Shown here piece by piece: positions 33,929-43,700 of a stretch of 64,000 nucleotides of DNA. Made by a program: the position numbers and the translations under genes. Source of the stretch: Lachnospiraceae bacterium 48-33 (GTDB taxonomy: Bacteria > Bacillota > Clostridia > Lachnospirales > Lachnospiraceae); NCBI GenBank assembly GCA_041223485.1, contig JBCLQI010000005.1, one strand, 5' to 3'. Below the pieces are notes generated by a model that was not told the origin of the DNA, searched no databases, and saw nothing but the letters and a program-made list of their open reading frames with translations. Numbering within the stretch: the stretch's first letter is position 1; each line of letters opens with the position of its first letter.

Positions 33929-34363
33929 TTATAAAAGGTCATTTACATTTCCTGTCAAAGACTTAACTAAATCCCATCCAGTACTGCCACCAAATGACCG
34001 ATATCCATAAGCATCATATTTGCCATAAACTCTCGACAATGCACTTCCACTGTCTCTCCAGCTTTTAAAGGAACCTATTGACTTTTGCTTTATTGTCTTA
34101 TCCTTATTTGATGTATTTACATAACCTGAAGCTGCTGTTGCTCCATTTATCGAATAAGCTAGCTTCATATCTACGCCCAGATATGTTTCCTGAGAATAAC
34201 TTAATGTAACAGTCATTGAATGATAAATTTCATCACCCAAAACTTGAGGTCTGCCATAACCTACATTTAATTTAAACTCATATGCAGCAAACGCACTTAT
34301 ACTCTGTCCAATTGCCATAATACCAACCAGTCCTAATGTAGCAAGCTTTTTTCCTAATTTCAT
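33929..34363 (-). CDS. Small secreted beta-rich protein (144 aa), divergent third paralog of the bacteriocin-like family
   Basis: Signal peptide ending SAFAA. Mature part is S/T/Y/G-rich. It sits behind the same conserved upstream element as the 38612 and 41657 genes. Confidence 0.5.
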   Translation of the reverse strand: MKLGKKLATLGLVGIMAIGQSISAFAAYEFKLNVGYGRPQVLGDEIYHSMTVTLSYSQETYLGVDMKLAYSINGATAASGYVNTSNKDKTIKQKSIGSFKSWRDSGSALSRVYGKYDAYGYRSFGGSTGWDLVKSLTGNVNDLL

Positions 34364-34429
34364 TATTTCGCCTTCTTTCTTTAATCAAATACATTCGAAA
34401 TCTATTATCCTTTTCTACTATCTCTCACT

Positions 34430-34560
34430 GTTTGTAACCAGTCAAATCTAATCAACAAAAATAATAGCTTCTTCAACAGTTACCATTTTGATGATTTACT
34501 TTTGTTTAAACCAGTTGAATAATTTTTCCAACCAGTCAGTTGACAAAAACATCATAATTT
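34430..34560 (-). promoter_or_regulatory. Conserved upstream element with LytTR-like repeats (ACAGTTACC, ACCAGTTGA, ACCAGTCAGTTGACAAAAA) and a TTGACT -35 box
   Basis: The same ordered motif set recurs at 39150-39270 and 42198-42316, each upstream of a small secreted-protein gene. Confidence 0.4.
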
Positions 34561-34944
34561 CTCTTTTCGTGTACACTTTATTATCACTTTGTTTAAACAC
34601 TTTTATTTTATTGCTTCTTACAAAAATTGTCAACTAGCCAAACATAATCGTCCGTTTTTTTGCATAATCGTCTCAAATATATACTTTTATATTAATTCCA
34701 TTTATCCTATTTGTATAATTATTGTTGTCAAAAATTTTCCATTCTTTTCTTCTATTCTACTACCAGTTCTATTTGCCTTTTTTCGCTATTTCTATTCCAT
34801 AATCTGATTATATAACTGTTACTCTCTTTTTATTTATGTATAATTTACCATTCATTTACTTAAATCTCATAATTTTATACAATAAAAAATTAAAGTTATA
34901 ATATAAAATAATCAGCAACTATATAACTCTGATTTTAATATTCT

Positions 34945-35607
34945 TTAATTTTCATTTTTCCCATTTAACATGATAATCTCATCTGCATACTCTTTTACCC
35001 CTTCGTTATGTGATACTGCAATCACTGTATGTCCTTGTTCTGCCAATGTTTTAAGATTTGAAAACACAATTTTCTCATTTTCTTCATCCAGATTTCCTGT
35101 CGGTTCATCAGCAAGAATAATATCCGGATTATTTGCAAGTGCACGGGCAATACATACTCTCTGTTGTTCTCCTCCACTCATTTGTGATGGCAGGGAATCT
35201 GCAAGCTTTTTTACTCCAAATCTTTCAAGAAGATTTTCTGCACGTTTTTTTCGTTCTTTTTTTGAAATTTCAGGGTTAATTCTCATAGGCACAATCACAT
35301 TTTCCAGAGCATTTAAATATGGGTTCAGATAAAATCCCTGAAAGACAAAACCAAGATTTTTCATTCTAAGCTTTGCTTTTTCCTTTTCCGTCAGTCCATT
35401 TATATTGTTCCCATTAATATAAATTTCCCCTTCTGTGGCATTGTCTATTGTACCGATAATATTTAACAAAGTAGATTTTCCCGCACCAGAACGACCCATA
35501 ATGGCATAAAATTTTCCTTTCTCAAACTCATATGAAATGTTGTTTAATACTTTTACATCGTTTTTATATATTTTTACTACTTTTTTTACATCTACAATTA
35601 TTTCCAT
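34945..35607 (-). CDS. ABC transporter ATP-binding protein (MacB/FtsE-like, lactococcin-972-group-like)
   Basis: Walker [10 protein letters not shown], signature MSGGEQQRV, Walker B IILADEPT. Only 220 aa. Confidence 0.9.
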
Positions 35608-35689
35608 TTTTTATATTCCTTTCTTATATTTTTATCAATACTAACAAAAAATCCAAATATACAAGCATGCAACTTGTTGATATGTTCAG

Positions 35690-41656: not shown

Positions 41657-42073
41657 TTACCATGTATCACTAAATGATGAGATTCTGTAACTAGCAGTTG
41701 AATCACTACCAAAACTATAATGTCTATCTCCTTTAGATACATCATCAAAAGTCCATGAATATTGTATACCAGTAGTGGCTGTTGTAATTGAAATATTATG
41801 ATTAGCCACAGCAAATGAATGGCCTAAAAAAGATTTTGTGTAAATGCCGATACTAGCTGTACCTTTTGTGTATGTTTTATTAAAGCCTACTTTCATTGTA
41901 TGGGAAGCATCTTTCGCAAATGAAACATTCTCGCTAGCCCATGCCTTAAATCCAGCCTCAACTGTAAACGGCTCTTTCCAAGAATATGAATTTGTACCAG
42001 CTAATACACTTGCACTCATTGCAACAATAGCTGTCATACTGGCAATACTTATTTTTAATTTATTTTTTATCAT
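41657..42073 (-). CDS. Small secreted beta-rich protein ending in Trp (copy B, 138 aa)
   Basis: Paralog of 38612..39025 with the same signal peptide and the same C-terminal SYRISSFSDTW. The mature region has diverged. Confidence 0.55.
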   Translation of the reverse strand: MIKNKLKISIASMTAIVAMSASVLAGTNSYSWKEPFTVEAGFKAWASENVSFAKDASHTMKVGFNKTYTKGTASIGIYTKSFLGHSFAVANHNISITTATTGIQYSWTFDDVSKGDRHYSFGSDSTASYRISSFSDTW

Positions 42074-42197
42074 TTAATTTTCTTCCTTTCTCAACTTAAA
42101 TTTATTTAAAGTTCATTATCTCTCCATGTCCATTTTTACTATAATATTATCATATGAATATGATAACCCGTCCACGTATTTGCATATCTTAATATCC

Positions 42198-42316
42198 ACC
42201 GTCAGTCAAATCAGCATAGAAAAAATAATAACTTTCTCAACAGTTACCTTATTAATGACATATTTCTTCTAAACCAGGTAAAAAACATTCCTACCAGTCA
42301 GTCAAAAATGTCATAC
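42198..42316 (-). promoter_or_regulatory. Conserved upstream element with LytTR-like repeats (copy B)
   Basis: ACCGTCAGTCAAATC...ACAGTTACC...ACCAGTCAGTCAAAAATGTCATA. ACAGTTACC closely resembles the AgrA-type LytTR half-site ACAGTTAAG. Confidence 0.4.
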
Positions 42317-42447
42317 TCTTCTTTTTTCACGTGCACATCATCAGAAGTTTGTTCGAACACTTATAATATAATATTTGTCAATAGATATGTCAATAAGCTC
42401 TGCACCATCTCCTGTTTTTCTACATCATCTTCCGTTTTTTATATTTA

Positions 42448-43116
42448 TTAATAAATATTCATATCTATCATAGTCAAAAATTCTTCTCCTAGTTCTTCCA
42501 TCTCCAGATTTCCATGATACTTTTCCACGCATTCCCTGACATTTTCCATTCCAATTCCATGATTTTCCATGTCCTCTTTTGTTGTAAGATATTTTCCATT
42601 CTTTTTCTTTCGCTTCCCTTCATAATCATTTTTCATATAAATCATCATCACATTATCTTCATAACCTACTGTCAGTTCTATACGTCTCTGTCTGCTGCTT
42701 TTTGCCGCTTCTATTCCGTTTTTCAAAAGATTTGCAAAAATCACACAAAGGTCATAGGAAGATACCACAGAGTCTGCCGGCATTTGTCCCTTTATTTTTA
42801 ACTGTATTCCCAGCTCTTCTGCTTGTAACATATATTGATTTAATATCACATCAACCTCTTTATTATGTACAGTTACCCTCTTTTCCTCCATGTGTGTCTG
42901 AACATTTATCTCTTTTATATATTCTTTTAATTTCTGATTTCCTTCTGTTTCACAATATTTTTGTATTATCAGCATATGCTCTTTCATATCATGGCGAAAT
43001 TTCCTGATATCCTGCTCTCTTTCCTCTTTTTCACCCCTAATGAAACCTTTTTTCCATTCTTTAAAAAGATTTTTTTTGCTGCTTCGATTCCATCTGAACT
43101 TACTTTTTCCACCCAA
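42448..43116 (-). CDS. Histidine-kinase-like protein (DHp plus GHKL ATPase, LytS/AgrC type) lacking any transmembrane sensor domain
   Basis: H-box RHDMKEHML, N-box IFANLLKNGIEA, G-box HGIGMENV. Only ~220 aa with no hydrophobic segments. The longest ORF overlaps the response regulator's 3' end by 133 nt, so the real start lies inside that overlap. Confidence 0.65.
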   Translation of the reverse strand: MGGKSKFRWNRSSKKNLFKEWKKGFIRGEKEEREQDIRKFRHDMKEHMLIIQKYCETEGNQKLKEYIKEINVQTHMEEKRVTVHNKEVDVILNQYMLQAEELGIQLKIKGQMPADSVVSSYDLCVIFANLLKNGIEAAKSSRQRRIELTVGYEDNVMMIYMKNDYEGKRKKKNGKYLTTKEDMENHGIGMENVRECVEKYHGNLEMEELGEEFLTMIDMNIY

Positions 43117-43700
43117 TCCAAATTTACCAGAACAGATTTGTTACTGCGGTAAAATCCATCTTCTTTCAGCCGTTTAGTCAGTTCTGTAATTTTTTCCTCT
43201 GCTGTATAATCCTGTTTTGTTGTATGAAAAATTACCTTTCGTTCCTGTTTGATTGTTTCAATATAAATAATATCTTTATATACCAGCATTACTTTTCCCT
43301 GTTTTGGAACATGAACCTCTATTGTCTGATATCTCCGAAGTTTTGTCAGAGCATGTTCTAATCCCTCCTGCATCTCTTCTTTCAGATTATCCTTCTCAAT
43401 AAACCGAAATGCCTCTACTTTATAACCTTCTCTACAATATTCTTTATATGAGGTTACAATCATAACAATACTCTTGGAAAACTGCGATTTATACTCTATT
43501 GTCGCTTCAAGACCGCTGATTCCATTTAAATAAATATCCATAAATACAATTTGATACTCTTTTCCGGCCTCTAAAAATTCCTCCGCAGAACTGTAAATTT
43601 CTATCTCTGTTTGCTCCTTTTTTAAGGTTTGCTGTATCACATTTTTCATTTTTTCTGTCCATTCTTTTGCATCTTCTACAATTGCAATGTTCATCTTCAT
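42984..43700 (-). CDS. LytTR-family response regulator
   Basis: Receiver domain (IAIVEDA...FMDIYL) plus a C-terminal LytTR DNA-binding domain (KDIIYIE...FYRSNKSVLVNL). Confidence 0.85.
   Translation of the reverse strand: MKMNIAIVEDAKEWTEKMKNVIQQTLKKEQTEIEIYSSAEEFLEAGKEYQIVFMDIYLNGISGLEATIEYKSQFSKSIVMIVTSYKEYCREGYKVEAFRFIEKDNLKEEMQEGLEHALTKLRRYQTIEVHVPKQGKVMLVYKDIIYIETIKQERKVIFHTTKQDYTAEEKITELTKRLKEDGFYRSNKSVLVNLDWVEKVSSDGIEAAKKIFLKNGKKVSLGVKKRKESRISGNFAMI

Follow-up and report, generated by a model that had tools for sequence, protein, structure and literature searches.

A Predicted Jelly-Roll Secreted Protein, an Orphan Membrane Partner and a Putative Split MacB-Type Transporter in a Variable Locus of Lachnospiraceae

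Introduction

What is the function of a gene block in which small secreted proteins, membrane-anchored proteins and ABC (ATP-binding cassette) transporter genes follow a two-component system, and is such a block a relative of the lactococcin 972 (Lcn972) bacteriocin systems? The question is raised by a locus of Lachnospiraceae bacterium 48-33 (GenBank assembly GCA_041223485.1), found in a stretch of 64,000 nt of contig JBCLQI010000005.1, here called the window. An earlier note on this DNA had proposed a Lcn972-like bacteriocin and immunity system and had named, as a fallback, an uncharacterised secreted-effector/transporter system under LytTR control. The first proposal is not borne out by the present analysis; the fallback is what the evidence supports. 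In the best reading, given a probability of roughly 0.45, the locus would produce a secreted effector (protein A) under the control of cell density, and the producer would be protected by a membrane-anchored partner (B) together with a three-component pump (C, D and E).

All coordinates given below are positions in the window, and the locus lies on the minus strand throughout. Related loci from other assemblies that were compared with the window carry labels such as L001, L005, L009 and L010. All 11 of the 11 open reading frames (ORFs) that the earlier note had placed here are present on the minus strand, at its positions and in its order. In the direction of transcription they encode a LytTR response regulator (RR), a kinase core, A1, B1, C1, A2, B2, C2, D, E and A3. 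The GC content of the block is 0.28-0.32, compared with ~0.38 in the flanks, and a Lachnospiraceae assembly from mouse gut (L001) matches the window at 99.7% identity. The existing names of these Lachnospiraceae bacterium 48-33 proteins are hypothetical protein or ABC transporter permease. The locus is a variable low-GC island marked by duplication, cassette replacement and gene scars.

The Secreted Protein A

A1 (41657-42073, 138 amino acids (aa)) and A2 (38612-39025, 137 aa) are the small secreted proteins of the two modules. The Sec-type signal peptide of A1 ends in ...SVLA and is followed by GTNSY, leaving a mature protein of 113 aa and 12.4 kDa that has an isoelectric point (pI) of 8.2, is free of Cys and ends in SFSDTW. 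A positive n-region, a hydrophobic core and a V-L-A cleavage motif followed by G are, by inspection, conserved family-wide. Members of the family are ~135 aa long and share invariant F52, H58, G71 and I77, near-invariant Y119 and D136, and a C-terminal S-F/Y-x-D-x-W; their alignment lacks any conserved stretch of 7-10 residues. The family is very small: it forms 6 clusters at >=70% identity among 5.8 billion proteins, and an exhaustive HMMER profile search of 1.84 billion proteins gave 16 representatives.

The fold was modelled with AlphaFold2 on an alignment of 20 sequences that included distant members. The predicted local distance difference test score (pLDDT) was 82.9 overall and 88-95 across the mature domain; a model from seven close homologues had reached a pLDDT of 58 and was not usable. 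In the 20-sequence model the first 25 residues are disordered. The remainder forms a jelly roll of eight to nine strands and ~112 residues, and the C-terminus is an integral strand of this folded 12-kDa domain. Foldseek matches of the model in the PDB include birnavirus capsid jelly rolls, the Ena1B spore-appendage subunit (7A02, E = 2.5e-4), the BC2L-C lectin and PirA, and a viral fold library returned C1q-like and tail-fibre tip domains. The modelled fold resembles carbohydrate-binding modules and C1q/TNF-like heads, which are likewise beta jelly rolls. Sequence identity to these is 5-19%, and in contrast to them A stands alone, joined to neither an enzyme nor a fibre. A is predicted to be a jelly-roll binding module without an enzyme domain.

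Sequence searches gave no further relatives. A has no match in the PDB and none in Pfam or NCBIfam, the carbohydrate-binding families of Pfam included. Scans with PADLOC and PHROGs (defence and phage functions) returned generic ATPase matches only. A signal peptide of the SipW/TasA type was considered for A and rejected, as the NCBIfam scan gave no SipW-cognate signal family.

The Partner Protein B and the Transporter Components

B1 is 275 aa long when read from the ATG at 41468 (40641-41468) and 282 aa from a TTG (40641-41489); B2, the second membrane-anchored partner, has 273 aa (37529-38350). B1 has one hydrophobic segment, at residues 7-25, and is laid out as an N-terminal anchor with an acidic ectodomain of 240 aa (pI 4.5). 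There are 11-12 clusters of B among 5.8 billion proteins, and no match was found in Pfam, NCBIfam or the PDB, even by profile search. By these searches B is an orphan family of single-pass membrane proteins. Its gene directly follows that of A in every A-bearing lineage examined.

C1 (39394-40644) and C2 (36282-37532), both of 416 aa, score 30.0 and 29.7 bits on Pfam FtsX, where the cut-off is 25.5. Hydropathy places a first transmembrane helix (TM1) at residues 20-38, then an acidic extracytoplasmic domain of ~240 residues and TM2-4. As a single sequence C has no PDB match; with a profile, its nearest solved relative is YtrF (E = 5e-5), which shares this layout of TM1, large outer domain and TM2-4. 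C can be classed on sequence as a MacB/FtsX-type permease.

The 195-aa membrane protein D (35690-36277) had been described in the earlier note as FtsX-like with four helices. The helix layout stands, since hydropathy gives TM1 and TM2-4 as in C with almost no outer loop; the FtsX assignment is weak. D scores 17.8 bits on Pfam FtsX, below the 25.5 cut-off, and its hhalign match to the transmembrane domain of C is also weak (E = 0.0027, probability 11%), although colinear with C residues 285-415 over 121 columns. A sequence search with D gave no PDB match. D follows C in L005, L010, L014, L021, L022 and L024.

E (34945-35607) is, as had been proposed, a 220-aa ABC ATPase (Pfam ABC_tran). Its best NCBIfam scores are 213 bits for LolD, 207 for DarD, 205 for TIGR03608, 201 for MacB and 198 for FtsE, all below their own cut-offs, and its best PDB relatives are 5XU1 (a pneumococcal MacAB-like pump), MJ0796, LolD, YtrE, YbbA, MacB and BceA. 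E can be assigned to the MacB/LolD/FtsE (type VII) group of ATPases, its subfamily remaining undefined as no equivalog cut-off is reached.

Type VII ABC systems such as FtsEX, LolCDE and MacB often do mechanical work on extracytoplasmic partners. In Firmicutes such systems do their work at the outer side of the membrane, and protection against peptide antibiotics is known for several of them. E is closest to the ATPases of the Firmicutes systems Spr0693-0695 (5XU1), YknXYZ, YtrEF and BceAB. The present locus differs from these systems in the divergence of C, which is very distant even from YtrF, in having the orphan B as partner and not an adaptor of the HlyD type, and in carrying a dedicated secreted protein in the operon. 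It also differs from BceRS-controlled systems in its AgrC/LytTR pair. C has four transmembrane helices and D about four, encoded by separate genes, and neither is a ten-helix BceB. C and D may form an asymmetric permease pair that has only one outer domain and is driven by two E subunits; such a pair would resemble BceB in its single-domain asymmetry. The mature A proteins are mildly basic (pI 8.2-8.8), and the ectodomains of B and C are strongly acidic (pI 4.4-4.8).

Relationship to Lactococcin 972

Membership of A in the Lcn972 family is refuted. A1, A2 and A3 gave no match to PF09683 at E <= 1, and NCBIfam likewise gave no match to a Lcn972 family (TIGR01653). The positive control was the mature Lcn972 sequence, the identity of which is borne out by its score of 56.8 bits on PF09683 in the same library (cut-off 22). 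A profile of 20 A-family members aligned to Lcn972 with an hhalign probability of 0.19%. The folds differ as well: Lcn972 has 66 residues in a sandwich of two antiparallel sheets, each three-stranded (PMC7476776), in contrast to the jelly roll of ~112 residues modelled for A, and Lcn972 is not among the fold-search matches of the A model. As for the membrane proteins, C and D gave no NCBIfam match at E <= 1 and hence none to TIGR01654. TIGR03608, suggested for the ATPase, scores 205.2 bits on E against a cut-off of 254.85; it ranks below LolD and DarD and is level with MacB and FtsE. It is thus very improbable that this is a true Lcn972-family locus, with enlarged lipid II-binding homologues and immunity provided by an Lcn972-type membrane protein and ATPase. 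The features that invite such a view (a Sec signal, a beta-rich protein with a C-terminal Trp, an adjoining FtsX-like protein and ABC ATPase, and TIGR03608 among the top ATPase matches) are superficial parallels.

A functional analogy to Lcn972-type systems survives and gains some support. In the scbABC and Lcn972 clusters an unmodified Sec-secreted protein is encoded first, with the presumed immunity genes, for membrane and ABC proteins, behind it (PMC4055356), and the same gene arrangement is seen here when the locus is set beside lcn972-orf2-orf3 and scbABC. The LytTR regulator ComE switches on the streptococcin B genes scbABC by way of a repeat site that precedes the structural gene, and a quarter of pneumococci keep the immunity genes scbBC without the bacteriocin gene scbA (10.1101/2024.10.01.616058). 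The present locus also has a natural variant (L024, described below) with the downstream genes and no structural gene. The likeness does not extend to kinship of sequence or fold, since A is not a 66-residue six-strand sandwich. In place of a TIGR01654 protein of ~650 aa there is a putative split MacB-type pair (416 + 195 aa), and there is in addition the conserved membrane-anchored protein B, so that the earlier remark that the 273/282-aa partner proteins have no Lcn972 counterpart holds.

Tandem Duplication and Divergence of the Modules

The duplicated module of small protein, membrane-anchored protein and 416-aa permease recognised in the earlier note is real. It is a tandem repeat of ~3.1 kb whose boundary is marked by a scar: after C1 lies a fragment, D' (39283-39390), consisting of the first ~35 codons of D with a nonsense change and 94% identical to 36170-36259. 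At the protein level A1 and A2 are 80% identical, B1 and B2 74%, and C1 and C2 88%. All six genes are intact and under purifying selection, with ratios of nonsynonymous to synonymous substitution (dN/dS) between the modules of 0.35 for A, 0.40 for B and 0.20 for C.

The divergence is focused. Identity falls to 70-72% in mature A, to 58-72% in the B ectodomain and to 72-80% in parts of the outer domain of C. The extracytoplasmic domains of C1 and C2 are 72-90% identical as a whole, in contrast to 95-100% for the transmembrane domain, and dS is near zero over the last ~55 codons. The conserved transmembrane part is the part of C that must work with the single D and the single E. At the DNA level, 36254-36553 and 39366-39665, which cover the 3' end of C and the start of D or D', are 94-98% identical, compared with 80-87% elsewhere in the repeat. 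This near-identity suggests recent gene conversion or a recombination junction.

A similar gradient is seen between lineages. For the window and L010, identity is 74% for E, 47% for C, 43% for D, 36-40% for B and 33-37% for A; across lineages conservation falls in the order E > C > D > B ≈ A. The patterns of divergence and of charge would fit contact between A, B and the outer domain of C, with two specificities served by one motor.

Distribution, Gene Order and a Variant Without A

The order A-B-C-D(-E) is kept in seven independent lineages, in which identity of A goes down to 26-33%. The distant A genes are always followed by genes for a B of ~270 aa, an FtsX permease of ~415 aa, a D of ~200 aa and, if the contig extends far enough, an ATPase of ~218 aa. 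When 185,579 species-representative genomes were scanned with the C alignment, in a pattern-based search that may overlook very divergent copies, six loci emerged, all in Lachnospiraceae (Roseburia, an "Eubacterium" metagenome-assembled genome and uncultured gut lineages). The cassette thus appears to be rare and limited to Lachnospiraceae. An AgrC-like kinase and a LytTR regulator adjoin the operon in the relatives of the window and in an uncultured Roseburia. Since the operon of Roseburia sp. CAG:303 has no adjacent LytTR system, the invariant core is A-B-C-D-E, and LytTR control is frequent and not universal.

One metagenomic contig from the same chromosomal site lacks A. L024:7700-13461 has intact B, C, D and E at 72, 82, 81 and 88% identity. 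Where the RR, the kinase and A would be, it carries an insertion-sequence-like remnant (a 73-aa ORF) and a gene for a DUF5050-type lipoprotein, and tblastn finds no trace of A there at E <= 1e-3. By analogy with scbBC, this variant favours a role of B-C-D-E that would be independent of self-made A, for example protection from the A of neighbours.

Promoters, Stem-Loops and the Search for a Pheromone

The upstream regions of A1, A2 and A3 have in common an element of ~100 nt. It contains two ACTGGT-type direct repeats followed by a conserved GGTAACTGTTGA...TATTAT box, and the period of the repeats is 20 bp at A1 (element at 42225-42298), 22 bp at A2 (39173-39247) and 21 bp at A3 (34461-34536). 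The repeat pattern and the box pattern each occur exactly three times in the 64 kb, always upstream of a small secreted-protein gene, where none would be expected by chance. LytTR-activated bacteriocin promoters have two 9-bp repeats with a 12-bp spacer, followed by −35 and −10 sequences (PMC2714321). The element here has the same 9+12+9 layout and is a putative site for the regulator.

Near-consensus sigma-70 sites (11 of 12 consensus positions) lie upstream of the repeats at A1 (TTGACA-17-TATATT, 42365-42393) and at A3 (34605-34633); the A2 element lacks such a site, and the A1-type site is also conserved in L005. As the sigma-70 sites sit upstream of the repeats, the repeats could be an operator rather than an activator site. 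These sites are predictions to be taken with caution, for promoter-like sites are not enriched region-wide (91 compared with 85 expected).

The elements of other lineages vary. In L005 the A promoter element also precedes a second pair of RR and histidine kinase genes. L010 has its own repeat of 20-bp period in the promoter region. A promoter region of ~420 bp is duplicated almost exactly in this locus (L010:5926-6343 and 8398-8806). The first copy precedes A-B-C-D-E and the second an operon for a 336-aa secreted protein, a 125-aa S26 signal peptidase and a 176-aa membrane-anchored protein, of which only the signal peptidase is annotated. In three distant lineages (L009 ~300-440, L011 ~100-215 and L016 ~400-520) the A leader has a conserved inverted repeat, TCCTTAAATTATC ... 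GATGATTTAAGGA, instead of the ACTGGT repeats. This inverted repeat and a short ORF that has a strong ribosome-binding site (e.g., MNVIKSHKRNEKVLKLS...) overlap each other, and the arrangement may represent an alternative operator or a leader-peptide attenuator.

In all lineages the A and B genes are separated by a strong stem-loop. The sequences are unrelated, some have a U-tract, and the position is the same in L005, L010, L014, L022 and L023. In the window the A1-B1 stem-loop (41500-41526) has an 11-bp stem and is likely a partial terminator or an mRNA stabiliser; folding of the A2-B2 intergenic RNA gives a long stem-loop and then a U-tract (approximately 38381-38476). The place of the stem-loop after the A gene suggests that A is probably made in large excess over B-E. 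The long leaders gave no RNA family in Rfam.

A scan for double-glycine or AgrD-like ORFs gave none in the window, L005 or L010, and no pheromone gene turned up in L005 or L023. In L009 a 41-aa ORF (129-254, plus strand) directly upstream of an A gene (493-897) has a textbook double-glycine leader, MNKKYFVELSKEECLELNGG, followed by ISQGSVFEEIWDKLKNWLFGK. The peptide is a candidate induction pheromone or class II bacteriocin.

Several of these features are known from the pln, blp and com regulons. Like them, the locus has an AgrC-like (HPK10-type) kinase and a LytTR regulator (the kinase sensor being deleted in the window), one element placed before several secreted products, a variable island with cassette turnover and, in L009, a double-glycine peptide adjoining A. 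Paired repeats with a period of ~21 bp at the regulated promoters (PMC2714321) are also shared. In contrast to those regulons, the products here are folded proteins of 12-13 kDa with Sec signals and not double-glycine peptides, the operon is without a C39-ABC exporter, and no pheromone gene is identified in the window.

The Response Regulator and the Kinase Remnant

The first gene of the block (42984-43700, 238 aa) encodes a LytTR response regulator, as the earlier note had stated (LytTR 58 bits, Response_reg 46 bits in Pfam). Its best NCBIfam similarity is to AgrA, far below the cut-off. The protein is 84-91% identical to the regulators of L005 and L023, which end in ...KKKKELMMKLYEWRLKQLNQ; its own C-terminal 10 residues, SRISGNFAMI, come from reading into the kinase gene out of frame, the result of a deletion. 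The junction, at 43017-43026, was read directly. In blastn, window 44200-43017 corresponds to L005 4374-5541 and window 43026-42096 to L005 6301-7243. Compared with the sister lineages ~760 bp have been lost, comprising the last ~13 codons of the RR and kinase codons 1 to ~228, and with them the whole membrane sensor. At the same chromosomal site (glgB-mscS-argH, then the locus) the sisters have regulators of 241 aa and AgrC-like kinases of 422 aa. There are two such RR-kinase pairs in L005 and L018 and one in L023. These kinases, like that of L010 with 437 aa, are polytopic membrane sensor kinases with an H-box.

What is left of the histidine kinase is its ATP-binding core (42448-42987, 179 aa; HATPase_c_5 86 bits). 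The ATG of the remnant overlaps the RR stop (ATGA) and lies two residues past the phospho-acceptor His of FRHDMKEH, and the gene is called from this ATG, at 179 aa, in L001. The 222-aa ORF of the earlier note (42448-43116) starts at a TTG inside the RR gene, in a frame that is also open in L005. The note had described a kinase core without a sensor domain; this is present, with no membrane sensor, as a deletion remnant and not as a designed sensorless kinase. The remnant has lost the sensor, the original start codon and probably the phospho-acceptor His, and is still an intact ORF. Decay as a pseudogene was considered and not confirmed: dN/dS on its branch is 0.18 (dS 0.26), a level of constraint like that of the complete kinases in related lineages. 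This leaves two options, a recent deletion or a remnant that still has a role. Control of the locus by cell density is probable, because related strains drive the regulator by a membrane kinase of the AgrC type; because the kinase has lost its sensor, the control may be degenerate or rewired in this lineage.

Proposed Mechanism and Alternatives

If the locus is a density-controlled effector system, the LytTR regulator would act at the promoters with two direct repeats ~21 bp apart and start transcription. A would be released and bind a component of the envelope, such as a glycan or a lipid-linked target, on neighbouring related bacteria and harm them. At the surface of the producer, B would serve as a specificity adaptor that captures A, and C/D/E would dislodge it by an ATP-driven movement of the outer domain of C, with E supplying ATP hydrolysis. 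The two modules of the window would then represent two effector/protection specificities sharing one D and one ATPase. This reading is supported by the order A-B-C-D-E, by the A-less locus L024, by a transporter of type VII (its ATPase group, the FtsX domain and MacB topology of C, and a D colinear with the transmembrane domain of C), by the divergence of the modules and the fast evolution of A and B, and by a basic A beside acidic ectodomains of B and C. It is also supported by the stem-loops between A and B, by repeats that are specific to the small-protein promoters, by the L009 peptide, by the placement in a variable island and by the precedent of scbABC.

A number of observations weigh against it. 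The effector activity of A, its binding target and the protection by B-C-D-E are predictions. A has no homology to any described bacteriocin or toxin in Pfam, NCBIfam, the PDB, PADLOC, PHROGs or the hhalign comparison with Lcn972. Its nearest folds are sugar-binding and receptor-binding modules, so that an adhesin or lectin fits equally well, and it is under purifying, not diversifying, selection (dN/dS 0.35). On the side of control, the kinase of the window is without its sensor, the search for a pheromone gene in the window was negative, a near-consensus sigma-70 site stands upstream of the repeats at two of the three promoters, and Roseburia sp. CAG:303 has no LytTR system in the DNA adjoining its operon. 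The A-less locus comes from a single metagenomic contig, and the relationship of D to FtsX is weak (17.8 bits; hhalign E = 0.0027).

Among the alternatives the one to be taken most seriously, although it is somewhat unlikely, is a surface, matrix or adhesion system without killing. A lectin-like or fibre-forming A would be made at high density and anchored by B, and C/D/E would release, mature or assemble it outside the membrane, much as FtsEX activates its extracellular partners or LolCDE passes on lipoproteins. The jelly roll best matches carbohydrate-binding modules and lectins and also matches Ena1B, A is under purifying selection, the stem-loop after its gene would suit an abundant structural product, and type VII systems such as FtsEX, LolCDE and MacB often work on extracytoplasmic partners. 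The twin promoter of L010, which drives a 336-aa secreted protein and a dedicated S26 signal peptidase, is reminiscent of SipW-type matrix operons; A itself, however, lacks Cys, a sortase motif and any recognisable signal of the SipW type. If the sole task of B-C-D-E were to handle A, their presence without A in L024 would be hard to explain. Every A paralogue is accompanied by a separate B and a separate C outer domain, which speaks for specificity pairs rather than for major and minor subunits, and an extremely rare variable island is unlike core surface structures. The same contig, L024, shows that B-C-D-E can stand alone and so lends something to the improbable view that the locus encodes a pump of the MacB/BceAB/YknXYZ kind against envelope stress or antimicrobial peptides, with A as an accessory binding protein. 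E does fall together with BceA, YtrE and the MacAB-like pump of pneumococci, and YtrF is the nearest solved relative of C. However, A is promoter-proximal and conserved in all the other lineages, the way in which A, B and the C outer domain diverge together suggests an internal, self-encoded ligand, and the associated two-component system is of the AgrC/LytTR quorum-sensing type, with no kinase of the BceRS type.

It is more improbable still that A or a fragment of it is the signal for the AgrC-type kinase, processed or exported by B-C-D-E. The A promoter element before the second RR-HK (histidine kinase) pair of L005 would then close an autoinduction loop, and the failure to find a pheromone gene in the window or in L005 and L023 would be accounted for. 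AgrC-class kinases normally sense short peptides, however, and A is a well-folded domain of 12 kDa with its C-terminus built into the fold as a strand; a conventional double-glycine peptide is present in L009, and the operon of Roseburia sp. CAG:303 is without an adjacent two-component system.

Compatible with several outcomes is a tentative proposal about the machine itself, that B-C-D-E is a new kind of type VII mechanotransduction system. Its client would be the self-encoded A, held by B at the cell surface and loaded, released or activated by an ATP-driven movement of the outer domain of C within an asymmetric C/D pair, and the triplets of A, B and C ectodomain would be swappable specificity cassettes on a shared D-E motor.

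The Third Small Protein and Its Downstream Module

A3 (33929-34363, 144 aa; mature form 118 aa, pI 9.0) had been taken for a third, more divergent copy of A. This is not upheld by BLASTP (E = 1.7), and the protein ends in ...DLL and not in Trp. Remote homology was also considered and rejected, as hhalign gives 2.6% against the A family and the sole hint is an H-S/T-M-x-V motif. A3 shares with A1 and A2 only the promoter element and the style of the signal peptide. Its positional counterpart in L005 (14913-15299) is a 128-aa secreted protein that has the promoter in common with A3 and matches it over the signal peptide only (MKLGKKLA...), so the mature part has been replaced behind a conserved leader for expression and secretion. 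The L005 protein has four Cys and the A3 of the window none.

Downstream of A3 lie genes, also on the minus strand, for a DUF5050-like lipoprotein (32415-33770, 451 aa), an ABC ATPase (31333-32220, 295 aa) and a permease without a Pfam match (28930-31320, 796 aa). The lipoprotein is only 23% identical to its L005 counterpart, and one database source names a member of its cluster DUF5050. A3 is probably the first gene of this separate module, the second of the same regulon. The genes downstream of A3 are rearranged in L005. A 71-aa ORF there (L005:14096-14311; also L018 ~9380-9502) is a 3'-end fragment of the gene for a 291-aa ABC ATPase found 5 kb further on, a scar left by recombination, which shows shuffling between the two ABC modules. 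Further along the window (25665-28625, minus strand) are a stand-alone C39-like cysteine peptidase (271 aa, Peptidase_C39_2) and then an OmpR-type regulator and a HAMP/HisKA kinase.

Significance

A secreted antagonist under quorum control with ABC-type protection is a known theme. New are the two orphan families A and B, the jelly-roll effector candidate, and a putative split MacB-type permease with a single outer domain and an extra adaptor. If A is an effector, protein bacteriocins would gain a new class, that of folded jelly-roll binding modules using the Sec pathway, and the orphan membrane adaptor with its split MacB-type pump would be a new protection architecture. If the mechanotransduction proposal is true, the MacB-fold transporters of Gram-positive bacteria would include a client class and a subunit architecture not described before, whether the output is killing, adhesion or signalling.

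Lachnospiraceae are dominant gut commensals, and little is known of how they compete. Families A and B are without annotation anywhere, so that even a negative result for killing would assign a first function to them. The natural variants provide a comparative series, with single and double modules, intact and sensorless kinases, and a B-C-D-E locus without A.

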